IMG/VR virus record: IMGVR_UViG_3300049595_003462
DNA from: an uncultured virus (IMG/VR IMGVR_UViG_3300049595_003462)
Taxonomy: Duplodnaviria > Heunggongvirae > Uroviricota > Caudoviricetes
Direction: 5' to 3' (one strand)
Length of the DNA: 64,000 nt
The notes beneath the pieces are model-generated. The model was given only the letters and a program-made list of their open reading frames with translations, had not been told where the DNA came from and searched no databases. The translations under genes were made by a program, and so were the position numbers. Shown piece by piece: positions 5,570 to 63,891 of this stretch. The first letter of the stretch is position 1; the number at the start of each line of letters is the position of its first letter.

Positions 5570-6189
5570 TGGATTTAGGACAACTTGGTCATTTTGACCC
5601 AAAAATTAGAGAAGAGATTGAAAAACAATTTAAAAAAATTCAATCTGAAATGGGTATTCAACCCGACGAAGAATATCAAAAAGAATTAGAAGACATGTTA
5701 GGTCTTTCATTTGAAGATATGGAAAAAGAAATTAACAATATTGCTAAATTAAGAACAATTAAAGTTGAATTAGTACATGAAGACGCGGTTCTTCCAAAAT
5801 ACGCATACCCTTCAGATTCAGGGTTTGATTTACATGCAACTGAAGAGGTTATTATTGGGCCATTTGGCAGAGCTTTAATTCCAACAGGTCTAAAAGTTTC
5901 TTTTGAAGAAGGTTATGAAATACAAGTTAGACCAAAAAGTGGTTTAGCTATTAAACAAGGATTAACAGTTCTTAACACTCCAGGAACAGTAGACCAAGGA
6001 TATACTGGCGAAATACAAGTTATTGTGTTTAACACCAACAACACAACAGTAACAATTCCAAAAGGAATGAAAGTGGGTCAAGGTGTTTTATGCCCCGTAG
6101 TTCAAGGTAAATATGTTAGCATTGAACAAGTTGGTCAAGTTGAGGATAAAGATAGAGGTAACAACGGTTTTGGTAGTACAGGAATATAA
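5569..6189 (+). CDS. dut: dUTP diphosphatase
   Basis: SGFDL, RPKSGLA, GTVDQGYTGE, RGNNGFGSTG motifs; N-terminal extension. Confidence 0.95.
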   Translation: MDLGQLGHFDPKIREEIEKQFKKIQSEMGIQPDEEYQKELEDMLGLSFEDMEKEINNIAKLRTIKVELVHEDAVLPKYAYPSDSGFDLHATEEVIIGPFGRALIPTGLKVSFEEGYEIQVRPKSGLAIKQGLTVLNTPGTVDQGYTGEIQVIVFNTNNTTVTIPKGMKVGQGVLCPVVQGKYVSIEQVGQVEDKDRGNNGFGSTGI

Positions 6190-6575
6190 TGGAAAATAAT
6201 ATTAGTCCCGCATTACCTGATGGTGTTAAAAATTATTTAATTGACATTGATGGAACAATCACCGATGATATTCCAAACGAAGAACCTTGGAGAATGGAAA
6301 CATCATTACCATATGATGGTTCTGTTGAAATAATTAATTCTTGGTTTGATGATGGTCATATCATTACTTTCTTTACATCAAGAACAGATGAACACGAAAT
6401 TGTCACCAAACAATGGTTAGATAAACATGGTTTTAAATACCATAACATCTTGTTTAACAAGCCAAGGGGTGGTAACTACCATTGGATTGATAATCATATT
6501 GTTAGAGCAACAAGGTATGATGGTAGATGGGGAGAATTAATAAAAGTAGAACACAAAATAGAAGTTTTTAAATGA
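6189..6575 (+). CDS. HAD-superfamily phosphatase
   Basis: IDIDGTI, FFTSR, KP, WIDN motifs. Confidence 0.8.
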   Translation: MENNISPALPDGVKNYLIDIDGTITDDIPNEEPWRMETSLPYDGSVEIINSWFDDGHIITFFTSRTDEHEIVTKQWLDKHGFKYHNILFNKPRGGNYHWIDNHIVRATRYDGRWGELIKVEHKIEVFK

Positions 6576-8209: not shown

Positions 8210-8988
8210 TGAATAGAATTATAGATTACGAAAATTTATCAAACGAAATACAACGTTGGATTGAAAATTATGTATTAAACAACAACATCAAAACTTTAGT
8301 AATTGGTGTTTCAGGTGGAATTGATTCCGCAGTTGTCTCTACTTTATGTGCAAAAACGGGGATTCCAACAATCGCTGTTGGAATGCCGTTGAATTCAAAA
8401 CTTAATAATACAACATTATCAAACCTTCAATTAGAGTTTTTATCCAAATTAAATGTTAAGACGGTTGAAATTGAATTAAGTGAGACATTTAAATCCTTTG
8501 AAACCCTTATGTCTCAAACGTTTAAATCTGAATTGGCTAATGCGAATAGCAAATCAAGATTAAGAATGATGACATTATACCATATAGCAACAGTTACAAG
8601 TGGTATTGTTATAGGAACAGGAAATAAAGTTGAGGATTTTGGTGTTGGGTTTTTTACCAAGTATGGTGATGGTGGTGTTGATATTTCTCCAATTGCCGAT
8701 TTATATAAAACAGAGGTTAGAGAACTTGGTCGTTATTTGGGAGTTCCTCAAGAAATTATTGATGCAACACCAACAGACGGTTTATGGGATGATGATAGAA
8801 ACGATGAATCTCAAATTGGTGCTACTTATGAAGAGTTAGAATGGGTTATGGAATATGGTATTAATAAAATATCACACACCGAAAAAGAATTTAAAGTTCT
8901 CCAAACGTACCAAAACTTTAATGAAAAAAATAAACATAAAATGGTTTCAATACCAATCTTTGATTTAAAACAAAACGAAATAATATGA
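8209..8988 (+). CDS. nadE: NH3-dependent NAD+ synthetase
   Basis: GVSGGIDSAV, NSKSRLRM, GTGNKVE, FFTKYGDGG, PIADLYKTEV, PTDGLW. Confidence 0.95.
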   Translation: MNRIIDYENLSNEIQRWIENYVLNNNIKTLVIGVSGGIDSAVVSTLCAKTGIPTIAVGMPLNSKLNNTTLSNLQLEFLSKLNVKTVEIELSETFKSFETLMSQTFKSELANANSKSRLRMMTLYHIATVTSGIVIGTGNKVEDFGVGFFTKYGDGGVDISPIADLYKTEVRELGRYLGVPQEIIDATPTDGLWDDDRNDESQIGATYEELEWVMEYGINKISHTEKEFKVLQTYQNFNEKNKHKMVSIPIFDLKQNEII

Positions 8989-10142
8989 AAATAGGAATTA
9001 TCGGAGCAGGCAGATTAGGATTAACTTTTGCTCTATTATGTGAAAAAAACGGATACGAAGTAATTGTATCTGATGTTAGAGAAGATTATGTCTTTAACTT
9101 AAACCAAAAAATTTGTTTAACAAACGAACCATTAATCCAATCAATGTTGTTGGATTCAAAAAATTTTAGTGCAACAACTAAAAATATTGAGGTTATTGAA
9201 AACTCTGATGTTATTTTTACATTCGTTGCAACCCCATCAACATTAGACGGTAATTACGACACAACAAGAGTATTTGAAGTTGTTGCAGATTTTTATACCG
9301 CATCGTCATTAAACATCCCTTTATACGAAAAGAAATTCATTGTCGGATGTACAACTAACCCTGGTGATGTAGAACAAATCCAAACAAGATTAAACATGTT
9401 TAACATTCAGGTTGCATATAACCCTGAATTCATTGCTCAAGGTGAAATAGTAAAAGGTCTTGAACAATCAGACATTGTTTTAATTGGGACTGACTATACT
9501 GAACTATCAAATCAATTAATTGAAATTTATAATAAGATTCAAACCACACCTGTTAATGCTTATGTAATGTCACCAAAAGCTGCAGAAATAACCAAAATTG
9601 GCATTAACTGCTTTTTAACAACAAAGATTAGTTATGCAAACATGATGGGACAAATTATGATTAAGGCTGGTATTCAAAGTGAAATTGATATGGTTTTAAG
9701 TGCAATTGGTGGAGACTCAAGAGTTGGTAAAAAATACTTAAAATATGGATTTGGATTTGGTGGTCCTTGTTTACCAAGAGATAACCGAGCGTTAGGTCAT
9801 TTTGCAAAAAATCTTGGAATGGAGTTGAATTTACCTTTAACTGTAGACAATTTTAATAAAGAACACGCTAATTTCATTAAGGACTATTTTATTCAAAAAA
9901 ATCCTGATAGAATGGTACCATTTGTAATGGATTATATTACCTATAAAAAAGGTACTGATATTATAGAGGAGTCACAACAATTCCAATTGTGTGTTGATTT
10001 GTTAAATGAAGGTTATACCTTACATGTTATTGAAATTGATGCAATTACAAATAAGTTACAACAAATGAGTGAATCTTATAATAACAGATTAAAATTCTTT
10101 AAACCAGGGACTAACCCTCAAGGATACAAAATTACCCTATAA
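8985..10142 (+). CDS. UDP-glucose/GDP-mannose 6-dehydrogenase family
   Basis: GAGRLG Rossmann motif, YNPEF, GFGGPCLPRD catalytic Cys. Confidence 0.9.
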   Translation: MKIGIIGAGRLGLTFALLCEKNGYEVIVSDVREDYVFNLNQKICLTNEPLIQSMLLDSKNFSATTKNIEVIENSDVIFTFVATPSTLDGNYDTTRVFEVVADFYTASSLNIPLYEKKFIVGCTTNPGDVEQIQTRLNMFNIQVAYNPEFIAQGEIVKGLEQSDIVLIGTDYTELSNQLIEIYNKIQTTPVNAYVMSPKAAEITKIGINCFLTTKISYANMMGQIMIKAGIQSEIDMVLSAIGGDSRVGKKYLKYGFGFGGPCLPRDNRALGHFAKNLGMELNLPLTVDNFNKEHANFIKDYFIQKNPDRMVPFVMDYITYKKGTDIIEESQQFQLCVDLLNEGYTLHVIEIDAITNKLQQMSESYNNRLKFFKPGTNPQGYKITL

Positions 10143-10852
10143 TGATAATCTTAACAACATCATATAACTGCGAAAACTTTATTGAAAAATCTTTGATGAC
10201 AATTATGACTCAAAGATTTAAAGATTTTACTTGTTATATAACAGATGATTTATCTACTGATAATACGGTTGAAATAATTAAAAAAACAATACAAGGGGAT
10301 GACAGATTTGTTTTAATTGAAAACAAAACAAAGATGTATCAACCAGGGAATTATGACCAAGTCATTCGTGGTCTTAATGTTCCTGATGATGAAATTTGTG
10401 TTGAAATTGATGGGGATGATTGGTTACCAAATTCAAATGTGTTAGGATTAATTAATGAAACTTACCAAGATGAAAATGTCTGGATGACAAGTGGTTCATT
10501 TAAGTATAGTAATGGCTCTCAAGGATTTTCAACACCACCCACAAGTTTTAATAACATTAGACAGCAAGGGTTTACTCTATCACATTTACGAACATGGAAA
10601 TCTTGGTTATGGAAAAAAATTAAAGAAGAAGATTTACAAGATTCTGAAGGAAACTATTGGAGTGTAGCAGGCGATTTGGCGTTTATGTTTCCAATGTTTG
10701 AAATGTCAGGTGAAAAACATTATAGACATATTTCAACAATAACTTACATTTATAACGAAAATAATCCTTTGAATGACCATAAGGTTAATATGCCAATGGT
10801 AAATTCAATTGTAAACATAATTAGAAATAAAACACCTTACAATAAAATATGA
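10142..10852 (+). CDS. Glycosyltransferase family 2
   Basis: [18 protein letters not shown]. Confidence 0.85.
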
Positions 10853-11667
10853 CAAAAACAGTAAAAGATGTTAAAAATTATTGGAATAGTAGACCATGTA
10901 ATATTAGACATTCAAAAAAAGAAATTGGTAGTAAAGAATACTTTAACGACGTAGAACATCGTAAATATTTTGTAGAACCACACATACCAGAATTTGCAGA
11001 ATTTGAAAAGTGGAAAGGAAAAAAAGTTTTAGAAATTGGATGTGGTATAGGTACCGATTCAATAAATTTTGCAAAAGCGGGTGCTAAATTAACATGTGTT
11101 GAGTTATCTGAAAAGTCTTTAGAATTGTGTAAAAAAAGGTTTGAAATTTTTGGTTTAAATGCCGATTTTTATTGTGCAAACGCTGAAGAACTATCCAAAG
11201 TTGTTCCAATTGAAGAATACGATTTAATATATTCTTTTGGAGTTATTCATCATACCCCAACACCACAAAATGTATTTGACGAAATTAAAAAATATATGAA
11301 CGAAAACACTGAAGTTCGTATAATGATGTATGCAAAACACTCATGGAAAACATTTGAGTTTTTCATTAGAAATGGGTATAAATTTAATTTCAACCTTAAT
11401 AAAACAATACAATATTACGCTGAAGCTCAATTAGATTGTCCTGTAGCATTTACATACACTAAAAAAGAATTAATAAACTTGTTGGAATTAGATAATAATT
11501 TTAAAATTACATCTGTTAGAAAAGACCATATTTTTCCCTATGTAATTAAGGATTATATAAAACATAACTATAATAAAAAAACTATAATTAAACTTATACC
11601 AAAATCCATTTTTAGTTATTTAGAATCTATACTTGGTTGGCATTGGTTGATAACATTTAAAAAATAA
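10849..11667 (+). CDS. Class I SAM-dependent methyltransferase
   Basis: [21 protein letters not shown]. Confidence 0.85.
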
Positions 11668-11670
11668 ATT

Positions 11671-12492
11671 ATGATAACATGTAGTAACATAGGTGACAAT
11701 GGAAGATTTGGTAATCAACTATTCCAATTCGCATCTTTAATCGGAATTGGGGATAAATTAAACTATGAAGTTTTATTTCCTAAAAAAAATCTAAAACAAA
11801 TAAACATATCATCAACAAGAGAAAACAAGACTTTTGTCGCATATTTTGAAATAAATGAATGTTTTGATATTGACCAAAAATTTTTCACTGATGATTTAAT
11901 AATTGAGAAAAGAGTTAGTGAAAGATTTTTTCATTTTGATGAAAACTTGTTTAATATTTTAGACAACACGGATGTTAATGGTTATCTACAATCAGAAAAA
12001 TATTTTAAACATTGTTCAGATAAAATAATGGACATTTTAAAATTTAAAGATTCTATTATAACATCAGCAAAATCATACCTACCAAAGACAGATAAGACAT
12101 TAGTGTCAATTCATGTTAGAAGAACTGATGCCGCAGTACCTAATCCGTATCATCCATTAACAGGTTTAGATTTCTTTAATCCCGCAATAGAACATTTTAA
12201 TAAAGATGAGTACCATTTTGTAGTTTGCTCTGACGATTACGAATGGTGCAATAATGTTTGGGGAAATGACGAAAACTTTACTGTTGTTAATTCAAAATCA
12301 CCTTATGTTGATTTATGTGTTATGTCACTATGTGACCACCACATAATCTCAAATAGTTCATTCAGTTGGTGGAGTAGTTACTTATCAAAAAATAAAAATA
12401 AAAAAATCATCGCTCCAATCAAATGGCTCGGTACAGGGTATTCAACATACATTACCGATGATTTATATACAGAAAATATGATAAAATTATAA
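11671..12492 (+). CDS. GT11 alpha-1,2-fucosyltransferase-like protein
   Basis: GRFGNQLFQ, GYLQSEKYF, SIHVRRTD, NSSFSWW. Confidence 0.9.
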   Translation: MITCSNIGDNGRFGNQLFQFASLIGIGDKLNYEVLFPKKNLKQINISSTRENKTFVAYFEINECFDIDQKFFTDDLIIEKRVSERFFHFDENLFNILDNTDVNGYLQSEKYFKHCSDKIMDILKFKDSIITSAKSYLPKTDKTLVSIHVRRTDAAVPNPYHPLTGLDFFNPAIEHFNKDEYHFVVCSDDYEWCNNVWGNDENFTVVNSKSPYVDLCVMSLCDHHIISNSSFSWWSSYLSKNKNKKIIAPIKWLGTGYSTYITDDLYTENMIKL

Positions 12493-12497
12493 ACATA

Positions 12498-13553
12498 ATG
12501 GAAAATCAAATAAATCATCCTGAACATTATGGTGGAGAAGATAATCCATATGAAGCCATTAAAGTGATTGAATCTTGGGATTTAGGATTTCATCTTGGCA
12601 ATGCAATAAAATACATTTCAAGAGCGGGTAAAAAAAGTATTGATACTGAGTTAGAAGATTTAAAAAAATCTTTATGGTATATTGAAAGAAAAATACAAAA
12701 ATTAGAAGATAATGATTTTACTTTACAAGACGAAACTGATGAGTTAGATATTGACGTAAAAGACTTAACAAAAACAACATTTATTATTCCAGTTTGTGTT
12801 GAATCCAAGGACAGATATAATAACGCTGTAAGTGTACTTGGGTTTTTAAATAAAAATTTTAAAACAAATGTTATTATACATGAATTAACTAAAGAAGAAA
12901 GTAAATTAGATTTTATTAGTTCATTAAAAAACTTAAAAATAAATCACATTCTTCAAAAAGATAATTTGGATTACTACCACAGAACAAAACAATTAAACGA
13001 AATGTTAAATATTGTAAAAACACCTGTAGTTGTTAATTATGATATTGACGTTATTTTACCTGTTGACTCTTACGTTGAGTCACAAAATTTAATACTTAAT
13101 GGTAATTCAGATTTTGTTTATCCTTACGGTGATGGTGAATTTCAAAGGGAAATTTCTTTAAGTTTTAACAGGGATGAGTTTAATATAAATTTTGATATAA
13201 ATTCAATTGATACTAATTTACTAAAAACTTTTACGTCAAAATATGGTCATTGTGTTTTTGCAAATACAAAAAAATATAGAAAATGTGGTGGAGAAAATGA
13301 AAATTTTATTGGATATGGACCTGAAGACCAAGAAAGAGAAAATAGGTTTATAACTTTAAAATATAATGTATCAAGAGTAGATAATCTTGTGTATCATTTT
13401 GAACATTCAAGAACACCATTTAGTAACGGGGATAATAAATATTACGACAAAAATCATAAATTGTGTGATAAATTATTGGCTATGGACTATAAATCAATGT
13501 TAGATTATTATAACAATATTGAATATAGAGAGAAATACGATAAATTTAATTAA
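12498..13553 (+). CDS. DUF3310-like N-domain fused to galactosyltransferase-like (GT7-C-like) domain
   Basis: NHPEHY..GNAIKYISRAGKK..EDLKKSLWY, then YDIDV, GGENENFIGYGPED, YHFEH. Confidence 0.75.
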   Translation: MENQINHPEHYGGEDNPYEAIKVIESWDLGFHLGNAIKYISRAGKKSIDTELEDLKKSLWYIERKIQKLEDNDFTLQDETDELDIDVKDLTKTTFIIPVCVESKDRYNNAVSVLGFLNKNFKTNVIIHELTKEESKLDFISSLKNLKINHILQKDNLDYYHRTKQLNEMLNIVKTPVVVNYDIDVILPVDSYVESQNLILNGNSDFVYPYGDGEFQREISLSFNRDEFNINFDINSIDTNLLKTFTSKYGHCVFANTKKYRKCGGENENFIGYGPEDQERENRFITLKYNVSRVDNLVYHFEHSRTPFSNGDNKYYDKNHKLCDKLLAMDYKSMLDYYNNIEYREKYDKFN

Positions 13554-13567
13554 AACATATCAAAATT

Positions 13568-14407
13568 ATGATAGGACTAACTAATACCGAAATATTACAC
13601 CATGAAAAAGGTAGATTTGGAAATCAACTTTTTAGAATTGGTGCGGTAGTTGGAGAATCAATGAAACGTAATGTTGAATATTACATCCCAAAAGAATGGG
13701 ATCACTGCGATTTGTTTCCCAATTTAAAAAATAAAATATCAGTAAATGATATTAAACATAATGTATCATCAACACACCAAGAACCATCATTTGCATATCA
13801 CGACATACCTAGCAATTCAGGTCTTTTGGAAATAAATGGATTTTTCCAATCGTGGAAATATCTTGAGGGATTTGAAAATGAGGTAATTGAAGAATTATCT
13901 TTTTCTAAAGAAAGGATTGATAAAGCATTATCTAAAATGTCCAAAGACACAATAAAATTATGTGTTCATGTTAGGTGGGGAGATGTATATGATAGAAAAA
14001 CTGGTGGTGGTCATAAGGGTTTTGAAAAGTGGCACCCAACAATGTCACTTAACTATTATGAAAATGCAATAAATTTTATTTTAAATGAAACTAAAATTGA
14101 TGAAATTTTAATTTTTACAGATAACGAAGACACCAAAGATTTTATTTTTGGTAAGTTTGAAAAATTTGGAGTTACAGTTGTCTATTTTGATTACGACAGC
14201 GACTATATAACAGATTTCGTATCACAAAGTTTATGTCAACATTTTGTTATTGCAAATAGTACATTTTCTTGGTGGTCATCATTTTTAAGTAAAAATAAAA
14301 ATAAGATAGTTTGTTGTCCTAAAGAAGAAGATTGGTTTGGTTCGGCATACACTCAACACGATAGGAGTGCGTTATTACCAATAACTTGGAAAAGAATTAA
14401 TCAATAA
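13568..14407 (+). CDS. GT11 alpha-1,2-fucosyltransferase-like protein (second copy)
   Basis: GRFGNQLF, GFFQSWKY, VHVRWGD, NSTFSWW. Confidence 0.9.
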   Translation: MIGLTNTEILHHEKGRFGNQLFRIGAVVGESMKRNVEYYIPKEWDHCDLFPNLKNKISVNDIKHNVSSTHQEPSFAYHDIPSNSGLLEINGFFQSWKYLEGFENEVIEELSFSKERIDKALSKMSKDTIKLCVHVRWGDVYDRKTGGGHKGFEKWHPTMSLNYYENAINFILNETKIDEILIFTDNEDTKDFIFGKFEKFGVTVVYFDYDSDYITDFVSQSLCQHFVIANSTFSWWSSFLSKNKNKIVCCPKEEDWFGSAYTQHDRSALLPITWKRINQ

Positions 14408-14412
14408 GAAAT

Positions 14413-15030
14413 ATGGAAAATGTTTTAACCCCACAAGAAATGTGGGAAAGAGATAGAGGAGATGAAATTAAAATTATTGATTATCCGTTAGATTCTAATT
14501 CCCAAGTAATTGAACTTGGTGGATTTACTGGAGTATGGTCTAAAAAAATTATTGATAAGTTTAATCCAAACTTAATTATTGTGGAACCAGTCCCTAATTT
14601 TGTTTATGAGTTAACACGTAATTTTGGTGAAAATCCAAAAGTTAACATTGAAGGAGTTGCAATATCAACATCAAATAAAAAAATAAACTTGTATGTTAAT
14701 GGGTGTGCAACTTCAGAAACAATTGAAGTTTCAAAAAGAAAAATTAGTGTTGATTCGTACGACATTGGTTATTTTATATCCAAATATAATTTAAATAAAA
14801 TTGACTTAATTCAAATTAACATTGAATGTGAAGAATATCCATTACTTTTAAATTGGATTGAGACAGGATTTTTAAAAAATGTAAAATACCTACAAATACA
14901 ATTTCATACCTTTTGTGAAAATTATGAAGAAAACTATGAAAAAATATTTGAGGGATTAAAAGGAAATGGATTTGAAATCAATTATAAATATGACTTTGTT
15001 TGGGAGTCTTGGGTAAACAAAAATATATGA
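14413..15030 (+). CDS. FkbM-family methyltransferase
   Basis: VIELGGFTG, VEPV, IDLIQINIECEEY, LQIQFH. Confidence 0.8.
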   Translation: MENVLTPQEMWERDRGDEIKIIDYPLDSNSQVIELGGFTGVWSKKIIDKFNPNLIIVEPVPNFVYELTRNFGENPKVNIEGVAISTSNKKINLYVNGCATSETIEVSKRKISVDSYDIGYFISKYNLNKIDLIQINIECEEYPLLLNWIETGFLKNVKYLQIQFHTFCENYEENYEKIFEGLKGNGFEINYKYDFVWESWVNKNI

Positions 15031-16787
15031 ATTTAGATAAAAATATAATAGATGTTATTGAGAATTGGAATTTGTCATACACTGTTGGTAATTCATTGTT
15101 TCACATTTTAAATTCAAAAAATAAAGATTTTAATGATTTGGAAGAATTAAAAAAAGCTTCTTGGTTTTTAAATAAAAAAATAGATTCTTTAGAAAATTTA
15201 CCCCCAAGTAAGACTAAATTTAATAAAATTAAATTAGATGATATAGATTTTAAATGTATTAATCTAAAAAAAAGAAATGATAGAAGGGATTGGATTAACT
15301 CTCATTTACCAAAGTTTAATATAAACTATGAATTTTTTGACGCAATTGTTGATGATAATGAATATGATGTTAATTTTCCAAAGGCTTACAGTAAAGGTCA
15401 AAAGGGTTGTTTTCTTTCACACTATAAATTACTTAAAACACATGACAGTAATAAAATTTTAGGTATATTTGAAGATGATGTTGAATTATGTGAAGATTTT
15501 TTGGACAGGTTTAAGTATATTGAAGACAACTTTAATTTAGATTGGGATATATTCTTTTTATCATCGTACTACCATTTGAATGAACATAAAGATAGATGGA
15601 ACCCTTCAGGTGATTTTGAATTAACTGATACAAAATATATCCACAGAGTTTATGGCGCATTTACAACACATGCTTATTTGGTTAACCCAAAATCAATTGA
15701 TAAAATTTTAAAATTGATTGATGAAAACATTGCCGACACTTATGCAATTGACCATGTGTATTGCTCCAAAATTGAAAGTAAGTTAAATTGTTATTCTTTT
15801 ACTCCAGGAATGGCAAACCAAAGGGTTAGTCATAGCGATATTGATGGTAGTAATAAAGACCCTAACGAATTTAAATTAATTGTTGGTGAACACTATTACG
15901 TGAATAACCTTAAAGATTTTGATTATGAAAAATATTTTGAAAAATATATTTCAGAAAGAGATTCTAAAAAAATTAAATCTAAAATTTTTGATAAAACAAA
16001 AATTAAACAAGATGATTTTGACTACGACAAATATTTTGAAAAAATAAATAATAAGATATCAACAAGTATAAACAGATATGAATTTAAAAATAGTTATAAT
16101 CTAAATTACGTAATATATAACTACGATTATTTTACAAATCTTTATTACCAAAAAACTAATGTTGTAAATGAGGAATATAAAGAATATAGTAAATTACAAG
16201 AGTTAATAAGTTTGGTAGATAAATCAAAAATTATTATTGATATTGGTGCAAATTGTGGTTTATTTAGTATTCCATCCTCACTAAACGGATATGAAGTATA
16301 CGGTTTTGAACCTGTACGAATGAATATAAAATTGTTAGAATTAGGAAGAGAAGAAAACAAATGTAATAATTTTAATATTGTAAATATGGGAGTTTCTAAT
16401 AAAACAAAAAAAGAAACAATCTACATACCATATTGTTCAGACAACACATCTTTTAATAAAGATGTTGCAATAAGTAATATGTCATTTAGTAAAAATTATA
16501 TTGAAGAAACAGTTAATTGCACCACGTTTGATGATTGGATTAAAAAAAATAAAAATCTTAATATTGGATTTATTAAAATTGACGTTCAAGGATTTGAAAA
16601 AGAAGTGTTGGAGGGCATGACAGGATTTCTTAAAAATTGTAACGATGTTTACATTTATCTTGAATGGGATAAAAACTTAACAGAAAATAATGGGAATTCT
16701 TTAGGTGACATGGAAACTATTCTTATTGAGAATAATTTTGAAGTGAGAGAAACTTTAGAAAACGATAAACTTTTTTATAAAAAATAA
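15027..16787 (+). CDS. Fusion: degenerate DUF3310-like + GT25 glycosyltransferase + FkbM methyltransferase
   Basis: Start reassigned to the ATG at 15027 (ATGA overlap). INLKKRNDRR, GCFLSH, FEDD, THAY (GT25); IDIGANCG, FEP, IKIDVQGFE (FkbM). Confidence 0.85.
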   Translation: MNLDKNIIDVIENWNLSYTVGNSLFHILNSKNKDFNDLEELKKASWFLNKKIDSLENLPPSKTKFNKIKLDDIDFKCINLKKRNDRRDWINSHLPKFNINYEFFDAIVDDNEYDVNFPKAYSKGQKGCFLSHYKLLKTHDSNKILGIFEDDVELCEDFLDRFKYIEDNFNLDWDIFFLSSYYHLNEHKDRWNPSGDFELTDTKYIHRVYGAFTTHAYLVNPKSIDKILKLIDENIADTYAIDHVYCSKIESKLNCYSFTPGMANQRVSHSDIDGSNKDPNEFKLIVGEHYYVNNLKDFDYEKYFEKYISERDSKKIKSKIFDKTKIKQDDFDYDKYFEKINNKISTSINRYEFKNSYNLNYVIYNYDYFTNLYYQKTNVVNEEYKEYSKLQELISLVDKSKIIIDIGANCGLFSIPSSLNGYEVYGFEPVRMNIKLLELGREENKCNNFNIVNMGVSNKTKKETIYIPYCSDNTSFNKDVAISNMSFSKNYIEETVNCTTFDDWIKKNKNLNIGFIKIDVQGFEKEVLEGMTGFLKNCNDVYIYLEWDKNLTENNGNSLGDMETILIENNFEVRETLENDKLFYKK

Positions 16788-47846: not shown

Positions 47847-48045
47847 ATTTTTTTTGTTTTTGTAAATTTATTTTATATCTTTGTGGTATCAAAATTTATT
47901 CCTTTGATAAATATAAGTCATTTTTTCAGATAAAACAAATATTATATGACATTATGTCATTATAAAAAAATATTACTGACAATTTGACAAATTATTTGGA
48001 GATGTATAAAATTTGTTGTTACTTTGTAAAAAATCTATAAAATAT

Positions 48046-50061
48046 ATGAACGACTTAATGGACGATGACGACAAAATGATGAGTAAAAAATCAAAATCAT
48101 CTGCAGATTCAAACACACCTGTATTAGACAACTTCAGTAGAGACCTAAATAAATTAGCTGAGGCGGGTAAACTTGACCCTGTTATTGGTCGTGACCGAGA
48201 GATTTTGAGAATTGCTCAGATTTTATCTCGTAGAAAGAAAAATAACCCAATTATTATTGGTGAACCTGGTTGTGGTAAAACTGCTCTTGTTGAAGGTTTG
48301 GCAATTAAAATTGTTAATGGGGAATGTCCTCGTAACTTAATTGACAAACGTATTGTTAACCTTGACCTAACTTCAGTTGTTGCTGGTACCAAATACCGTG
48401 GACAATTCGAAGAAAGAATGAAAGTGATTATTGAAGAACTTCAGGCGAATCCAAACATCATTGTGTTTATTGACGAGATTCACACTTTGGTTGGTTCAGG
48501 TAATTCTTCAGGTTCAATGGATGGTTCAAACATCTTTAAACCAGCACTTTCTCGTGGTGAACTTCAATGTATTGGAGCAACCACATTGGATGAATTCCGT
48601 AAGAACATTGAAAAAGACGGAGCGTTAGAACGTAGATTCCAAAAAGTAATTGTTGATCCATCATCAGTTGATGAAACAATTCAAATCCTTAAGAATGTTC
48701 GTGACAAATACGAAAACTTCCACAAGGTAAATTACAGTGATGAGGTTATTGAAACTTGTGTTAAGTTGGCAGACCGTTATATCACTGACCGTGAATTTCC
48801 TGACAAAGCGTTTGACATCTTGGATGAGGTTGGGGCAAGAATGCAAACTGACTTAAAAGTTCCTGATGTTATTGAAGACCTTAAAAAGAAGGCTGCAGAT
48901 ATCAAACAACAAAAAATTGATGTGGTTAAAAAACAAAACTACGAACAAGCAGCAGAACTTCGTGACAAGGAGAAGAAATTGTTAATAAAACTTGAGCAAG
49001 AAAAAATTAAGTTTGAAGAACAATTGGCGAAGGAAAAACAAACCATCTTGTTGGAACACGTATACGATGTTGTTTCAAACATGACCAAAATTCCTGTAAA
49101 CAAAATGAGCGTTGATGACACAAAATCATTGTTAGATTTAGACAAAAACTTAATTGGTAAAGTTATTGGTCAGGACAACGCTGTTGTTAAGATTGCAAAA
49201 TCTATTAAAAGAAACCGTTTGGGCATTAAAGACCCTAACCGTCCAATTGGCTCATTCGTGTTCTTGGGTTCTACTGGTGTTGGTAAAACATACTTGGCAA
49301 AACAATTGGCTAAGGAAATGTTTGGTTCTGAAGATTCACTTATCCGTGTGGATATGTCAGAATACCAAGAGAAACATAGTATTTCTAAATTAGTGGGAGC
49401 TCCTCCGGGTTATGTTGGTTATGAAGAAGGTGGATTGTTAACTGAAAAAGTTAAAAACAAACCATATTCAGTTATCTTGTTTGACGAGGTGGAAAAAGCA
49501 CACAAAGATGTATTCACTGTTTTACTTCAAATCTTGGATGATGGTCATGTGACAGATAGTTTAGGTCGTAAGATTAACTTCAAGAATACCTTGATTATCT
49601 TGACATCAAATTTAGGGGTTAAGAAACTACAAGAATTTGGAACAGGTATTGGTTTCTCTTCAAACGCATATAGTAATGAAGAAGCTAAGAAACAAATGTT
49701 AATGAAAGAAATGAAGAATTTCTTTTCTCCTGAGTTCTTAAATCGTATTGATGATACAATCGTATTTAATTCTTTATCTCAAGAGGATATTAAAAAGATT
49801 ACAGACATTGAATTAAAGAAGTTGGTAGTTCGTCTTGTAGACATGAAATACAACATCACATACGATGATTCATTGGTTGAGTATCTTGCTAAGATTGGTT
49901 ATGATGAATTATACGGAGCTCGTCCATTGAAAAGAGCAATTCAAGATAAGGTTGAAGACCTATTGTCTGAAGAAGTTCTAACAGGTAAGATGATTGAGGG
50001 TAAAACTTATCTCATCAAAGTAGTGGATGAAAATGTGGTGGTCCAAAAGAAAGGACGATAA
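48046..50061 (+). CDS. clpC: ClpC-like AAA+ chaperone lacking the N-terminal Clp repeat domain
   Basis: GEPGCGKT and GSTGVGKT Walker A motifs, KYRGQFEER, UVR-type M-domain QNYEQAAELRD, GIGF ClpP-docking loop. Confidence 0.88.
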   Translation: MNDLMDDDDKMMSKKSKSSADSNTPVLDNFSRDLNKLAEAGKLDPVIGRDREILRIAQILSRRKKNNPIIIGEPGCGKTALVEGLAIKIVNGECPRNLIDKRIVNLDLTSVVAGTKYRGQFEERMKVIIEELQANPNIIVFIDEIHTLVGSGNSSGSMDGSNIFKPALSRGELQCIGATTLDEFRKNIEKDGALERRFQKVIVDPSSVDETIQILKNVRDKYENFHKVNYSDEVIETCVKLADRYITDREFPDKAFDILDEVGARMQTDLKVPDVIEDLKKKAADIKQQKIDVVKKQNYEQAAELRDKEKKLLIKLEQEKIKFEEQLAKEKQTILLEHVYDVVSNMTKIPVNKMSVDDTKSLLDLDKNLIGKVIGQDNAVVKIAKSIKRNRLGIKDPNRPIGSFVFLGSTGVGKTYLAKQLAKEMFGSEDSLIRVDMSEYQEKHSISKLVGAPPGYVGYEEGGLLTEKVKNKPYSVILFDEVEKAHKDVFTVLLQILDDGHVTDSLGRKINFKNTLIILTSNLGVKKLQEFGTGIGFSSNAYSNEEAKKQMLMKEMKNFFSPEFLNRIDDTIVFNSLSQEDIKKITDIELKKLVVRLVDMKYNITYDDSLVEYLAKIGYDELYGARPLKRAIQDKVEDLLSEEVLTGKMIEGKTYLIKVVDENVVVQKKGR

Positions 50062-59185: not shown

Positions 59186-59226
59186 GTATTAATTATAATT
59201 TTTAAAATTCTTTTTGTCAAACTATG

Positions 59227-59312
59227 CGGAAGGTGAGGGGCTCGAACCCTCGCGACTTTTACATCCTATCAGTTTAGCAAACTGACCCCTTCACCAACTT
59301 GGGTAACCTTCC
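59227..59312 (-). tRNA. tRNA-Ser(GCT)
   Basis: Cloverleaf, TCAGT-TTGCTAA-ACTGA, long variable arm. Confidence 0.92.
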
Positions 59313-59372
59313 TTGTATTATTAGTGTTCCAAAATTAATAAAAAAATAGAGTTTTGGAACACTAATAATTTT

Positions 59373-59690
59373 TTATATTAATTCTAATAGGACATAAGTT
59401 AATTTATATCCTGTAAATGCTCCGAGAGCGGACGGTATTGGAAACACAATCATCTTACCTAAATCGGTAACATACTTTGGTCTGTTAACAATCTTACCCA
59501 TAAAAAAATAGTAGGTAATATATCCTAACAATACCGCCAAATCTGTCTTGGTTGCAATGAACACAACCAAGGTTGCACCTATAAATCCAAAGATGAAATT
59601 ATCTCTAACTCCTTCCCATATTTCGTATGGGGTGGCGTCTTTATATTCTTTAACAATTTTTTGAAATGATTTTCTATTTCTCTTTAACAT
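59373..59690 (-). CDS. Membrane protein
   Basis: Three hydrophobic segments; TATATTTG at 59709-59716. Confidence 0.6.
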   Translation of the reverse strand: MLKRNRKSFQKIVKEYKDATPYEIWEGVRDNFIFGFIGATLVVFIATKTDLAVLLGYITYYFFMGKIVNRPKYVTDLGKMIVFPIPSALGAFTGYKLTYVLLELI

Positions 59691-59775
59691 ACTTTAATTT
59701 CTTAAATTCAAATATAAAAAAATCCCCCTGAATTTCAAACTCAGAGGGATAAATTATTTCTAATAAAAAATTATC

Positions 59776-60243
59776 TTATTTTAAGAATCTCAATTTATAA
59801 AGAGTACTATAAATTAATTCCTGAACAGTATCAATTTGATTTTGAATAAAAGACTCTTTAACCGATTTTCTATTTTTTTCAATATTATCATCTAATCCTT
59901 TAAAGTAAGTTATTAGTTGTTCTGTTGACTTATAATCAACCATTTTAATCGTTTTATAACCTGTTAACAAATCGTTTTTACCTTGGTAACTTTCAACAAT
60001 ACCATCAACTAATCCATCTAATCCTTCATAATATTTTTGTAAGGCTTTGTGCTCAGCAAATGATGATTGTGATTTTGTTTGCCAATGAAATACATGAGTC
60101 TGACTTCTTGAATGAAGTAATGTTGAAATCATATCAACAATATCCCCATCCTCAGCAATATCATCAGCAGTTTCTTTTTTTTCGGCTTCATTTAAATGCA
60201 TTACCTTAAATAATTGCTCTTTGCTTATCGTAATTTTATCCAT
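59776..60243 (-). CDS. Ferritin/Dps-like four-helix protein (DUF5856-like)
   Basis: HVFHWQT..FAEHKAL..YY..D..VESYQG; start at 60243 because the track start lies within a tRNA. Confidence 0.7.
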   Translation of the reverse strand: MDKITISKEQLFKVMHLNEAEKKETADDIAEDGDIVDMISTLLHSRSQTHVFHWQTKSQSSFAEHKALQKYYEGLDGLVDGIVESYQGKNDLLTGYKTIKMVDYKSTEQLITYFKGLDDNIEKNRKSVKESFIQNQIDTVQELIYSTLYKLRFLK

Positions 60244-60278
60244 ACTAATAAATACCTTTCCATTTGGAAAAAAATAAG

Positions 60279-60350
60279 TTGCGATAAAAGGAATTGAACC
60301 TTTGACATCTTGGATATGAATCAAGTGCTCTACCACTGAGCTATATCGCA
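60279..60350 (-). tRNA. tRNA with CAT anticodon (Met; Ile2 not excluded)
   Basis: TGCGATA/TATCGCA acceptor, CTTGA-TTCATAT-CCAAG. Confidence 0.8.
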
Positions 60351-60355
60351 ATTTG

Positions 60356-60430
60356 TAGTCTTATAAGGACTCGAACCTTAACGTCTTTTTGTCCGTAGCA
60401 AAATGTTTTATCCAATTAAACTATAAGACC
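60356..60430 (-). tRNA. tRNA-Arg(ACG)
   Basis: TTTTG-CTACGGA-CAAAA. Confidence 0.88.
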
Positions 60431-60434
60431 ATTG

Positions 60435-60507
60435 TTGTCCCGACAGGTCTCGAACCTATACTCTTCTGGACCAAAACCAGACGTGTTGCCAATTACACCA
60501 CAGGACA
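60435..60507 (-). tRNA. tRNA-Gln(TTG)
   Basis: TCTGG-TTTTGGT-CCAGA. Confidence 0.9.
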
Positions 60508-60514
60508 ATTTTTG

Positions 60515-60596
60515 TGGGAGCGATAGGACTCGAACCTATGAACTCTAAAGAGGGCGGAGTTACAGTCCGCAGCAATTGCCGCTATGCGACGCTCCC
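60515..60596 (-). tRNA. tRNA-Tyr(GTA)
   Basis: GCGGA-CTGTAAC-TCCGC. Confidence 0.92.
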
Positions 60597-60600
60597 AAAT

Positions 60601-60735
60601 AAGGAAAACAGAAGATGGTCGAGTGGACATCTGTTTTTACGATTAGCATTACTTAGGTGAATACCTCCCAACTCCGATTGTACTAGTCAGTATTCACTCT
60701 CGAACTATCAGTACAATCATTCCCTAATCAACCTT
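60601..60735 (-). ncRNA. Candidate pseudoknotted ncRNA between tRNA-Trp and tRNA-Tyr
   Basis: 9-bp, 8-bp, 8-bp and 6-bp perfect helices, one crossing. Confidence 0.65.
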
Positions 60736-60737
60736 TG

Positions 60738-60818
60738 CACGCCAGGAAGGATTCGAACCCCCGTTAAATTAACTTACAGTTTTGGAGACTGTTGCCTAAG
60801 CCGCTCGGCCACTGACGT
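60738..60818 (-). tRNA. tRNA-Trp(CCA) with extended variable region
   Basis: ACAGT-CTCCAAA-ACTGT; A1-U72, G73; 13-nt variable region. Confidence 0.85.
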
Positions 60819-60830
60819 GTATTTTTTTTG

Positions 60831-60901
60831 AGGTCGGTACAGGATTTGAACCTGTGTAAGCGGTTTTGCAGACCGATGCCTAACCACTCGGCCAACCGAC
60901 C
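60831..60901 (-). tRNA. tRNA-Cys(GCA)
   Basis: CGGT-CTGCAAA-ACCG, U73. Confidence 0.9.
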
Positions 60902-61006
60902 TTAATATTTTATCAATTCACCGATTACCACAATTACGGTGAGACCATCGGGTACTCGGACCCGTGTTTTCTTTTTACCCGTGGATTAAACTATTTGATA
61001 GGGTAG

Positions 61007-61081
61007 TGTCCCCGATGGGGCTCGAACCCATGACCCCTAAATTAAAAGTTTAGTGCTCTAAACCAACTGAGCTACGAAGAC
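61007..61081 (-). tRNA. tRNA-Lys(TTT)
   Basis: CTAAA-CTTTTAA-TTTAG. Confidence 0.9.
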
Positions 61082-61087
61082 ATTGTG

Positions 61088-61159
61088 TTGTCACGATAGG
61101 ATTTGAACCTATGACCGCTTCCGTATCAGGGAAGAACTCTACCGCTGAGTTACGTGACA
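61088..61159 (-). tRNA. tRNA-Ile(GAT)
   Basis: CTTCC-CTGATAC-GGAAG. Confidence 0.9.
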
Positions 61160-61161
61160 AT

Positions 61162-61692
61162 AAAAAAAGGTTCTAAATCATCCCCACGCCATTTTGAGAG
61201 AACCTTTTAAGTTTTAGATTTGGCGATATAGTATCCCACACCGATATGTCTAAGATTTGTTAGACAATAGTAACCATCCACGGTGGGTCTGTACTTTCAC
61301 ACTCCGTCCATGTTTACTTATCTAATCGGTTTGTCATAGAGTTTTCAACATAGCGTTCAGTGCTATCCTCAGAACATCTTCACCCTACCCCCAAAGTTAC
61401 GTGGTGAGTCTCACTCGGAAGAAGAGTGTGTACCGTAAGATTGTTCAGTATTCTTACGACTTGTGGATTCTATTACGACTAATTAAAGCCCCTTACCCCC
61501 TTAATCCATAATGGGGAACTCTTCTAATTTGAGATTCCAATGTACCTGACGGAATTTCACCCAATCAATTAATCTCGTTCATGAAAGATTATACAAGTTT
61601 CACTCTGTGTTACCTCCCCCATAGCCTTGAAGCCTTCAAGTCAGGGTCACACACCATAACGAACAAGTACTTTTCGTTAATCGTGGGGTCTT
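61162..61692 (-). ncRNA. Large ornate structured ncRNA candidate (~530 nt; GOLLD/ROOL-like size and context, or new)
   Basis: No credible ORF, visibly GC-richer than its flanks, more than 10 complementary helices including long-range and crossing pairs. Confidence 0.65.
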
Positions 61693-61758
61693 AAGTAAAG
61701 TATGACGTTTGATCGTCCTATGGTTGTTTCCATCCGCGGACTCACGGTTCTCTTTACT

Positions 61759-61848
61759 TGGCGGAGAGGGAGGGATTCGAACCCCCGTTAGAGTCTCCCC
61801 TAAAACGGTTTTCAAGACCGCCGCGTTCGACCGCTCTGCCACCTCTCC
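61759..61848 (-). tRNA. tRNA-Ser(TGA)
   Basis: GCGGT-CTTGAAA-ACCGT, long variable arm, encoded CCA. Confidence 0.95.
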
Positions 61849-61872
61849 ATTTAATAGGTACAAACCTAATAA

Positions 61873-62268
61873 TTATTTTATTAAAATCCAAGCTTCTTTA
61901 CAATATTTTTCATGTTTTCTTGCTTCGATTTCCATTGGATGCTTTTCATATCCATGTGTTTTTAACATTTTATAATACCTACTTACAATTGGTTGTAATG
62001 TGTGGGCATATTCATGTAATGTTGTTTCAATTACATCTTTAACATTCTTACAATTGTTTTTAAAGATATAAATAGTATTAGTATCAGGATTATACTCACC
62101 AAAATTTTGAATTTCGGCGTTTTTACTTTGATTCTTAACTACAACAGTACAACATCCTTTTCTTTTGTTAATTCCAAATTTAAATACACTATATCTTATT
62201 GTTTTATCAACAATTCTTCTAATTTCTCTGTGATTTAAATTATTTAAATTTGTATTTAGTCTGATCAT
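61873..62268 (-). CDS. HExxH zincin-like metallopeptidase
   Basis: GEY..I..TTLHEYAHTLQ..HPMEIEAR; TATATTTG at 62288-62295. Confidence 0.7.
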   Translation of the reverse strand: MIRLNTNLNNLNHREIRRIVDKTIRYSVFKFGINKRKGCCTVVVKNQSKNAEIQNFGEYNPDTNTIYIFKNNCKNVKDVIETTLHEYAHTLQPIVSRYYKMLKTHGYEKHPMEIEARKHEKYCKEAWILIK

Positions 62269-62328
62269 ATGTTTATTGTTTGGAATACAAATATACATAA
62301 AAATACCATATTAACAAAAAAATATTTT

Positions 62329-62420
62329 TAGGTCGTGACGAACCCATCTGTCACTTCTTACTAGATACTTGTGGCTTGATTATCATGATTAACGCCGCTA
62401 CCACTAGGGATCCCAACCTA
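62329..62420 (-). ncRNA. Candidate structured RNA downstream of tRNA-His
   Basis: TAGGTTG/CGACCTA closure, GTGAC/GTCAC hairpin, possible GGATCC/GGGTTC pseudoknot. Confidence 0.5.
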
Positions 62421-62424
62421 TTTG

Positions 62425-62500
62425 GGTGACTAACGGGAGTCGAACCCGTGACCTCTTGAACCACAATCAAGCACTCTAAACCAACTGAGCTATAGCCAAC
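62425..62500 (-). tRNA. tRNA-His(GTG)
   Basis: G-1:C73, CTTGA-TTGTGGT-TCAAG. Confidence 0.9.
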
Positions 62501-62501
62501 A

Positions 62502-62662
62502 TGTAAAAGGTAGTGGTTGACTTTATCAAGAATCCCGCCTAGCGACCATAAGTTTGGGCCCAGCTTCACACACCATTAGAGAGTTGGGTATTACTACCTA
62601 TCCTTAGTGTGTACCCTTGCGTCACGTCTCTCCACGCTTATCAACCTACGCATTTTACTACC
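62502..62662 (-). ncRNA. Candidate structured RNA (~160 nt)
   Basis: Long closing stem, CACACTA/TGGTGTG, GGTA-GTAA-TACC, crossing GGAGAG/CTCTCT. Confidence 0.5.
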
Positions 62663-62666
62663 AATT

Positions 62667-62774
62667 GCCGATTAAAAAGGATTCGAACCTTAATCTTACT
62701 CCCCTGGTTACCGTACCTAATCTGAAGACTCGAACTTCAGCGGGGGGTGTTGTGCGCCATTACACCATAATCAA
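62667..62774 (-). ncRNA. tRNA-like RNA without a canonical anticodon loop, with an extra T-loop hairpin
   Basis: TTGATTA/TAATCGG acceptor, D-arm, T-arm AAGG-TTCGAAT-CCTT, internal CTGAAG-TTCGAGT-CTTCAG. Confidence 0.6.
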
Positions 62775-62823
62775 TCGAGTGTTTCGAATCACTCAGTCTC
62801 AGATTAATTACTCCTGAGATTTG

Positions 62824-62937
62824 TAATCAGGACAGGATTCGAACCTGTATTAGTTGTACACCTAACTGAATCAATTTCCTCCGAGTACATCCGAACCCTA
62901 CTTTATCATCATGCATCTACCATTCTGCCACCTGACT
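62824..62937 (-). ncRNA. tRNA-like RNA family copy 1 (114 nt)
   Basis: AGTCAGG/CCTGATT-A acceptor, Leu-like D-arm, ACAGG-TTCGAAT-CCTGT, expanded anticodon arm. Confidence 0.7.
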
Positions 62938-63118
62938 ATTTCTTAAATGCTAATTTTATCTTTTCCCATATACTCATACTCTTATAATCATAGTAAAAGT
63001 TTATTGCTCTTGGAATACCACTCGACCAATGATGACATTCTGTTGATAATTTTTCGTAATGTTCTAAATCTGATTCACGTAAATCTTCATTAGTTGCTTG
63101 ATAACATTTATTTTCCAT
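62936..63118 (-). CDS. Small hypothetical protein
   Basis: 60 aa; TAG stop overlaps the 5' end of tRNA-like copy 1. Confidence 0.5.
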   Translation of the reverse strand: MENKCYQATNEDLRESDLEHYEKLSTECHHWSSGIPRAINFYYDYKSMSIWEKIKLAFKK

Positions 63119-63191
63119 AATTTTATTTTTATTTAAAGTTTATCGTTCTAAATCCCGCCCTTCTGGTAGCTGCAAAACGGTAGAAGTAATA

Positions 63192-63440
63192 TCATTTATA
63201 TCTTTTAAATCTATTATCACTTAAATCATCCACACCTTCACCAATTTTAATCCTATCTAATTTAGTTCTCTGTTCAAGTTCTAATATTTTATTTTTCAAT
63301 TCGTCTATAACCTTATTATATCCTTTTGTTCCTATTTCACCTTTAGATAAGTGTTTAGTTTTAGCTAAAATTGTTTCCAACTCTGTTCTTAACTTATCTA
63401 TTTCTTTTTGTCTATTAATGATACTACTTGAACTTTTCAT
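63192..63440 (-). CDS. Small hypothetical protein
   Basis: 82 aa, coiled-coil-like, between tRNA-like copies. Confidence 0.55.
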   Translation of the reverse strand: MKSSSSIINRQKEIDKLRTELETILAKTKHLSKGEIGTKGYNKVIDELKNKILELEQRTKLDRIKIGEGVDDLSDNRFKRYK

Positions 63441-63529
63441 CTTCGTAAGTTATTTTTTTGTTTTTAAATTAAATTATTATTTAGATACTTTATAAACTTC
63501 CCTACTGGGATTTGAACTCAACACTTTTG

Positions 63530-63671
63530 TAGTCAGGACAGGATTCGAACCTGTAACTCCTATTGCGTCTACTCATATCACTTTAGGATAGACTAATATG
63601 ACCCTGCGGAGTAGAATCGTCTATCTTTCGATACCTATATTAGCGAGTCTAACCAATTCCGCCACCTGACT
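63530..63671 (-). ncRNA. tRNA-like RNA family copy 2 (142 nt)
   Basis: Same acceptor/T-arm; CTAATAT/ATATTAG arm with insert; TCCTA/TAGGA variable arm. Confidence 0.7.
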
Positions 63672-63676
63672 AAATT

Positions 63677-63800
63677 TGCTCGTCTATTCCGAGCTGTCAA
63701 CGATCCTTGAAGCTTACCTACGCACTGTGAGGTAGACCGTGTGTTCGTTCGCATTGCCTAATCATTGAGCGCTTTTACATTTCGGCTGCCGTGCGTGTCA
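63677..63800 (-). ncRNA. Candidate pseudoknotted RNA between tRNA-like copies 3 and 2
   Basis: ACGCAC/GTGCGT crossing TACCT/AGGTA; terminal GCTCG/CGAGC. Confidence 0.45.
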
Positions 63801-63801
63801 G

Positions 63802-63891
63802 TAGTCAGGACAGGATTCGAACCTGTAAATTTCCAATCGCAACGATACCATATCCTATCTTGGAGTCGAACCAACTTTAAACCACCTGACT
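63802..63891 (-). ncRNA. tRNA-like RNA family copy 3 (90 nt)
   Basis: Same acceptor/T-arm; interior has a second T-loop hairpin TTGG-TTCGACT-CCAA. Confidence 0.7.

Follow-up and report, generated by a model that had tools for sequence, protein, structure and literature searches.

Few RNAs of bacteria and phages that lack an explained function are as large as GOLLD and ROOL, both of which are encoded beside phage tRNA genes and form cages built of RNA only. ROOL, which we take to be Rfam family RF03087, comes mainly from the phages and prophages of Firmicutes and from rumen samples. The tRNA gene region of phage T4 likewise contains RNAs that are not tRNAs, the small stable species 1 and 2, which are simple molecules of ~120-140 nt lying within the tRNA cluster and released by the tRNA-processing enzymes. 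According to PMC12286853, contacts in ROOL and GOLLD that had first been taken from covariation to be tertiary proved to be quaternary kissing loops. A survey of IMG/VR by Fremin et al. (2023) yielded 8,495 unnamed structured-RNA candidates from DNA viruses (PMC10690425), and the article text, in its accessible part, describes no large RNA in tRNA arrays. These candidates may include parts of the RNA family described below, of which a literature search found no published description, the large supplements of PMC10690425 lying outside that search.

The DNA analysed here, hereafter the window, is a stretch of 64,000 nucleotides from an uncultured virus of the Caudoviricetes (IMG/VR IMGVR_UViG_3300049595_003462). 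It belongs to a T4-type phage of low G+C content (~30%), and its genes include those for a Gp23-type capsid protein, a T4-type portal and a large terminase. The nearest capsid relatives in GenBank, with 42-46% identity, come from an uncultured 484-kb phage, Microcystis phage Mel-JY01 and Flavobacterium phages, and DNA nearly identical to the window is present in lake and freshwater metagenomes. Within a tRNA array of the window, an earlier note on this DNA had flagged an ornate non-coding RNA; the flagged stretch is a 599-nt gap that extends from tRNA-Ser(UGA) to tRNA-Ile(GAU). Our main reading, to which we give a probability of roughly 0.6, is that positions 61160-61692 (minus strand) encode a large and stable structural RNA, non-coding and from an uncatalogued family, which would be excised from a tRNA precursor and act in trans. 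The locus is composed as follows.

59226-63891, minus strand: tRNA array with at least 11 tRNA genes (ARAGORN, Rfam tRNA model)
61759-61848, minus strand: tRNA-Ser(UGA), upstream neighbour of the RNA (ARAGORN and Rfam tRNA model, 53.8 bits)
61694-61758, minus strand: optional 5' leader (~62 nt) that separates tRNA-Ser from the core; found in 14 of 53 unique loci
61160-61692, minus strand: conserved core of the RNA, from 5' AAGACCCC at 61692 to the U-rich tail abutting tRNA-Ile
61525-61606, minus strand: insertion 1, branched, ~75 nt, found in 22 of 54 sequences, at full length in 20 and in shortened form in 2
61303-61358, minus strand: insertion 2, found in 42 of 54 sequences (complete in 41, partial in 1); a 7-nt loop takes its place in the other 12
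61087-61159, minus strand: tRNA-Ile(GAU), downstream neighbour of the RNA (ARAGORN and Rfam tRNA model, 68.5 bits)

Several other elements of the window were recorded. A full-length tmRNA is borne by the phage at 53138-53528 on the plus strand (Rfam, 54.8 bits) and adjoins a gene for a ClpB-like AAA+ protein (48013-50061). Between tRNA-His and a tRNA-like match, the array has a 324-nt gap (62500-62823) that is kept in other loci carrying the family (74% alike across 348 nt in L067, with partial matches in L059, L014, L104 and L050), and this gap may be a candidate for a second non-coding RNA of the array. A 140-nt tRNA-free gap between tRNA-Tyr and tRNA-Trp (60597-60736) has a partial match to L067 and no match in Rfam, and is covered by contigs from three of four RNA libraries. 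The Rfam tRNA model also matches 62824-62937 (114 nt, 37.2 bits) and 63530-63671 (142 nt, 32 bits) on the minus strand, where ARAGORN is silent; both stretches may represent tRNAs interrupted by long insertions or introns, or else elements that resemble tRNAs. An ORF of 141 aa lies within the array at 61873-62298 (minus strand), with a weak match to DUF3920 below the Pfam cut-off; when used as a search anchor, it returned three viral contigs only, 100% identical and devoid of variation. Finally, a run of glycosyltransferase and methyltransferase genes on the plus strand (3663-16787; GT1, GT2, GT4, GT25, FkbM) may have a role in glycan or DNA modification.

The limits of 61162-61692 proposed by the earlier note agree almost exactly with the conserved core, and its placement of the RNA inside a tRNA array, here one on the minus strand, was correct. 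The nhmmer profile spans positions 61159-61699 of the window (E 2.7e-139), with a single copy in the window, and the length of the RNA among its relatives ranges from 410 to 545 nt. As had been claimed, there is no credible ORF: the largest frames wholly within the gap encode 36 and 37 aa, nothing inside it being longer, and a 75-aa frame traverses tRNA-Ser.

Relatives were collected by motif. A 15-nt G-rich motif taken from the gap (motif 1) matched 42 viral loci, 28 of which were homologous across most of the gap with 69-100% identity, while all 59 viral loci found with the independent motif 2 were confirmed as homologues by nhmmer; the two motifs together gave 48 unique sequences. A third motif gave 69 homologues among 95 loci, with core sequences unseen before in 10 of the 69. 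Among prokaryotes (one genome each of 185,579 species), motif 2 had 45 matches and none of them was a homologue, and a blastn search of 50,697 GenBank phage records gave no match to the RNA. Within the collections searched, the family is restricted to uncultivated viral contigs, several of which are 195-304 kb long, and its carriers are uncultivated freshwater T4-like and jumbo phages that hold it inside tRNA gene arrays.

Using flanks of up to 900 nt, ARAGORN detected tRNAs near the RNA at 36 of the 53 unique loci, none of them on the opposite strand, and found no tRNA at the remaining 17. The downstream tRNA begins at most 12 nt past the U-tail in 17 of the 53 loci, and in the window tRNA-Ile starts one base past it; the upstream tRNA ends 1-3 nt ahead of the conserved 5' end AGACCCC in 5 of the 53. 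The flanking pairs vary across phages (Ser/Ile, Leu/Phe, Leu/Thr, Ser/Arg, Met/Met, Arg/Pro). At one locus (L039, 1216-1290), the ARAGORN tRNA ending 1 nt ahead of the 5' end of the RNA has the anticodon CUA of an amber suppressor and is labelled Pyl. Over the pairs of the structural model given below, 453 cells are G.U against 50 that are A.C, and the share of canonical cells is 96.4% when the tRNA strand is read and 90.0% for its complement. Because G.U cells greatly exceed A.C cells and opposite-strand tRNAs are absent, the folded strand is that of the tRNAs, i.e., the minus strand in the window.

Such a position might also be expected of a cis-acting module of the tRNA operon, needed for processing, termination or stability, that would set the output of the downstream tRNAs and have no role once released. 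The constant location on the tRNA strand, often abutting tRNAs, fits this explanation, as does the strong terminal hairpin followed by a U-tract, which resembles an intrinsic terminator; if it did terminate, the downstream tRNAs would need read-through. In a promoter and terminator scan, the counts were close to those of shuffles, nothing was assignable to the RNA and the terminal hairpin was not called. We consider a purely cis-acting module unlikely, however: ~410 conserved nt and at least seven loop-closing pseudoknots far exceed the needs of a terminator or a processing signal, the flanking tRNAs differ between phages, and 17 of 53 loci have no nearby tRNA at all.

Relatives of the RNA are also found in RNA libraries. 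Four of four freshwater metatranscriptome runs, from four studies, contained contigs of relatives that were 80-99% alike over 61227-61739, although as assembled contigs these attest presence only, are blind to strand, ends and level, and may stem from DNA carry-over. They include joints of the short form that skip insertion 1 and one contig of 523 nt, approximately the size of the RNA. The contig depth over the neighbouring 141-aa ORF was zero in 4/4 runs, which is an unfair control, the relatives being without this ORF.

At E<=10, no Rfam 15 family was placed on the core, searched both within 5.5 kb and as 616 nt alone, with GOLLD, ROOL, OLE, RNase P and group I/II introns all included; the earlier statement that hallmarks of RNase P and group I/II introns are lacking is in line with this. 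The sole Rfam match near the RNA, to a permuted tmRNA (15.7 bits, E 4.7), falls mostly over tRNA-Ser and is at chance level. Membership of GOLLD or ROOL, which the earlier note had put forward as one possibility, had to be abandoned. For GOLLD, the mark of membership was at least 150 bits with RF02032, the model of its conserved 3' region, and the present RNA does not reach it; in contrast, GOLLD itself occurs at separate loci (312 and 328 bits) in two of five large contigs that carry the present RNA. Both copies are full-length, L246 (G003, 119352-119766) and L245 (G006, 107553-107961), ~6-10 kb from the present RNA. One phage can thus carry both GOLLD and the present RNA.

It is extremely unlikely that we are dealing with a known family in highly diverged form (GOLLD, ROOL, group I/II intron, RNase P or tmRNA) or with decayed, functionless tRNA genes. 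The weak permuted tmRNA match and the cloverleaf shape of the leader could be cited in favour of this. Against it, no family matches the core at E<=1, GOLLD coexists as a separate gene, and the RNA retains 65-89% conservation with compensatory changes. On the comparative evidence, neutral decay can be taken as excluded for this RNA because of that conservation combined with compensatory changes.

The other option of the earlier note, a new large RNA class, is borne out by a conserved, covariation-supported, multi-pseudoknotted element of 410-545 nt in phage tRNA arrays. The features shared with GOLLD as a phage-borne RNA beside tRNA genes are there, namely T4-type structural genes and tRNAs on both sides, as are those of a large ornate phage RNA beside tRNAs in general (more than 400 nt, no ORF, covarying helices and pseudoknots). 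A match to a known family, lack of covariation and lack of expression had been named in advance as refuting outcomes; on all three points the result favours the RNA call, expression being represented only by presence in RNA-library contigs.

The structural model was built by hand from RNAalifold output (23 sequences) and column-pair statistics, and was then counted with controls. A first model of 109 pairs was 96.3% canonical in 47 sequences; the refined model has 119 pairs in 23 helices, 96.4% canonical in 54 sequences, with changes on both sides (compensatory) at 75 of the 119 pairs. At least five loop-to-strand pseudoknots covary. None of 500 shuffles attained any of five measures, but this control overstates the significance because the 54 sequences are close relatives (mean column identity 65%), and double changes may often be inherited from few events. 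The sturdier evidence is the slid control (37-45% paired, its covariation score no higher than 0.104, compared with 0.375 for the model) together with the many pair types seen per position. Helix A, the helix 51-54/93-96 and PK6 are underlain by nearly invariant columns. Single-sequence folding energy compared with shuffles was uninformative (z = -0.43 for the minus and -1.32 for the plus strand); support for the predicted structure derives from comparison, not from energy. The predicted elements are given from 5' to 3'.

Helix A, 5' ACCCCA (61684-61688) with UGGGG (61617-61621), minus strand: closes the 5' domain; 100% paired in 54 sequences
Hairpin P1a, 61657-61679, minus strand: 96.6% paired; 4 of 6 pairs double-changed
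PK1, P1a loop 61665-61668 with 61518-61521, minus strand: 88% paired; 4 of 4 double-changed
Hairpin P2, 61625-61645, minus strand: 98.1% paired; AU:38 GC:16, UA:47 CG:6
PK5, P2 loop 61631-61633 with 61612-61614, minus strand: 100% paired; GC:37 UA:12
H-type pseudoknot of S1 and P4, 61464-61517, minus strand: encloses hairpin P5
S1, 61513-61517 with 61496-61500, minus strand: 96.3% paired; covarying pair CG:41 UA:13, no exception
P4, 61503-61508 with 61464-61469, minus strand: 94.8% paired
P5, 61487-61490 with 61477-61480, minus strand: 100% paired; UA:31 CG:20, CG:45 UA:9
Hairpin P6, 61432-61460, minus strand: 100% paired; 7 of 9 pairs double-changed
PK4, P6 loop 61442-61446 with 61372-61376, minus strand: 96.7% paired; GC:31 AU:21, GC:50 AU:4
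Hairpin P6b, 61412-61428, minus strand: 100% paired
PK7 (probable), P6b loop 61418-61422 with GAAGA 61377-61381, minus strand: 88.5% paired; 2 of 5 double-changed
Hairpin P7, 61387-61409, minus strand: 96.5% paired; 4 of 7 pairs double-changed
PK6, P7 loop GUAACU 61395-61400 with GGUUAC 61270-61275, minus strand: 6 pairs in 54 of 54 sequences; both sides invariant
Helix P8, 61360-61363 with 61299-61302, minus strand: 94.9% paired; AU:39 CG:12 GC:3; encloses insertion 2
Helix P9, 61236-61287, minus strand: 100% paired; 6 of 7 double-changed; encloses the invariant GGUUACUA and P10
Hairpin P10, 61260-61265 with 61248-61253, minus strand: 99.4% paired; 6 of 6 double-changed
PK2, P10 loop 61254-61258 with 61175-61179 in the internal loop of the terminal hairpin, minus strand: 95.1% paired; 5 of 5 double-changed
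3' clamp, 61160-61225, minus strand: PK3, the two-tier terminal hairpin P11 and the U-tail 61160-61165
PK3, CGCCA segment 61221-61225 with terminal loop 61187-61191, minus strand: 84.4% paired (unrefined alignment); 5 of 5 double-changed
P11 outer, 61199-61207 with 61166-61174, minus strand: 95% paired; 9 of 9 double-changed
P11 inner, 61195-61198 with 61183-61186, minus strand: 95.1% paired

According to this model, the RNA is knotted throughout, nearly every hairpin loop being held by a pseudoknot. In helix A, one C:G pair becomes G.U in L078 and U:A in L147, and the other four pairs are invariant. The pair types in PK1 include, e.g., UA:25 CG:16 and CG:28 UA:17. The P6b loop probably pairs with GAAGA at 61377-61381, and two pairs of this PK7 are compensatorily altered in L147. 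All 54 sequences keep UUAA in the loop of P5, for which the model offers no partner, and the upstream strand of PK3 lies ~30 nt from the terminal loop with which it would pair. Three candidates were rejected. The long-range closing helix ACCC/GGGU suggested by RNAalifold was dropped as its GGG partner varies uncompensated, along with a CACG/UGUG helix from the same source; their rivals, helix A and 51-54/93-96, gain double changes. A palindrome in the P1a loop was considered as a dimer contact, but it is missing in several relatives and the loop covaries with 61518-61521.

The 11 helices of the earlier note were scored on 47 homologues, with the result that five hold, one is ambiguous and five fail, so its architecture is corrected here. 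The terminal hairpin 61165-61174/61199-61208 is 94.1% paired with double changes at 10 of 10 pairs, the hairpin 61434-61440/61452-61458 is 100% paired with six of seven pairs double-changed, six of the seven pairs of 61247-61253/61260-61266 hold, and 61464-61469/61503-61508 is 95% paired. For 61657-61663/61673-61679, the outer four pairs stand, but the inner register is different in most relatives. The pairing 61511-61517/61615-61622 is formed in 97.9% of cases, but shows zero double changes and is broken in two sequences that support helix A, to which it is probably the less likely alternative. The proposed joining of the two ends by CCCCACG/CGTGGGG is paired in only 66% of cases, its central pairs occurring in 11, 17 and 26 of 47 sequences; its 5' strand never changes, and the variation of the loop is matched instead by the PK3 segment and inner P11. 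The helix 61626-61631/61635-61640 was placed in the wrong register, with the covarying helix offset from it. Two further pairings, 61545-61550/61640-61645 (74% paired) and 61459-61464/61593-61598 (58%), use insertion 1, which is absent from 32 of 54 relatives, and 61421-61426/61519-61524 is paired in 54%.

Since covariation is blind to the difference between intra- and intermolecular contacts, the same model may be read in another way, namely that the RNA is a subunit of an RNA-only homo-oligomer (a dimer, ring or cage), in which some of the pseudoknots, i.e., PK2, PK3 and the UUAA loop of P5, would be intermolecular. The genomic niche and the size class are those of GOLLD and ROOL, whose contacts read from covariation turned out to be intermolecular (PMC12286853). 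PK2, with five of five pairs covarying, joins a hairpin loop to an internal loop ~75 nt off and could be satisfied in trans; the partnerless UUAA of P5 is self-complementary; and the optional insertions are reminiscent of the linkers that vary in ROOL and GOLLD. On the other hand, every pseudoknot can be drawn within one molecule, and the RNA is smaller than ROOL (~580-660 nt) and GOLLD (>800 nt). Homo-oligomerization is a tentative suggestion, possible but doubtful at present. Somewhat more speculatively still, the family might represent a third independent class of phage RNA-only multimers after GOLLD and ROOL, with PK2 and/or PK3 and UUAA acting as bridges and the insertions as linkers, and it might handle phage tRNAs or host factors of translation or defence.

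The core is compact, rich in pseudoknots and interspersed with long single-stranded segments that do not vary (GGCUAUGGG, CCACAAG, CUGAGG and GGUUACUA), a combination that is a hallmark of large ribozymes and raises the question of whether the RNA is a new class of ribozyme acting on tRNAs or on itself. This is very unlikely in our opinion: no known ribozyme model in Rfam matched, a conserved cleavage or ligation junction is not evident, and GOLLD, ROOL and OLE are equally conserved. To our knowledge, none of these three is catalytic.

To its constant core the RNA may add two peripheral insertions and a cloverleaf-like leader, all three of them optional. Insertions 1 and 2 were seen in all four combinations of presence and absence, and in 3 of the 22 carriers of insertion 1 its site is occupied by unrelated sequence. 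The minimum free energy fold of the leader is a four-way junction with a 7-bp closing stem and three small hairpins with loops of 4, 6 and 6 nt, and the closing stem covaries (AGUAAAG/CUUUACU, AUUAGAG/CUCUAAU, AGUGGAG/CUCCACU). Neither ARAGORN nor the Rfam tRNA model called the leader a tRNA, and it has no 7-nt anticodon loop; it resembles a tRNA only in its four-way shape and in a closing stem of 7 bp. The leader may serve to recruit RNase P or RNase Z by mimicking a tRNA.

Under our preferred reading of a released, trans-acting RNA, the molecule would be transcribed within a tRNA precursor and excised by the maturation enzymes of the flanking tRNAs, which is probable because tRNAs abut both ends and the leader is tRNA-shaped. 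RNase P would create the 3' end of the RNA when it trims the downstream tRNA at its 5' end, and maturation of a 3' end, either that of the upstream tRNA or that of the tRNA-shaped leader, would yield the 5' end of the RNA. In the released RNA, the 5' end would be buried in helix A and the 3' end in a hairpin clamped by two pseudoknots; with both ends buried, the RNA should be long-lived. As a folded particle, it would then work in trans while the phage infects its host. Its task would be connected with tRNA or translation, which is our best guess from the location alone and is also what is suspected of GOLLD and ROOL.

The model supplies defined pairs for compensatory mutation, and the shortest forms of the RNA, ~420-470 nt, are a tractable target for cryo-EM. 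Compared with species 1 and 2 of phage T4, which are likewise set within a tRNA cluster, the present RNA is set apart by description, with its 410-545 nt and at least seven pseudoknots. Like the present RNA, GOLLD is large, ornate and pseudoknotted, resides in phage tRNA arrays, comes from lakes and combines a constant core with variable parts; the present RNA, in contrast, is about half the size, and the GOLLD covariance model is silent on the window. GOLLD forms a 14-mer cage (PMC12286853). ROOL, in the same source, is also similar in size (~0.5-0.65 kb), has multiple pseudoknots, and is found in phages and prophages, often near tRNA islands. In habitat the two differ, the present family coming from freshwater viral contigs. 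Overall, an unrelated family occupies the niche of GOLLD and ROOL, with a ~410-nt core in which almost every loop appears tied, and sometimes stands beside GOLLD itself, which suggests that phages keep a toolkit of large structural RNAs tied to their tRNA arrays.
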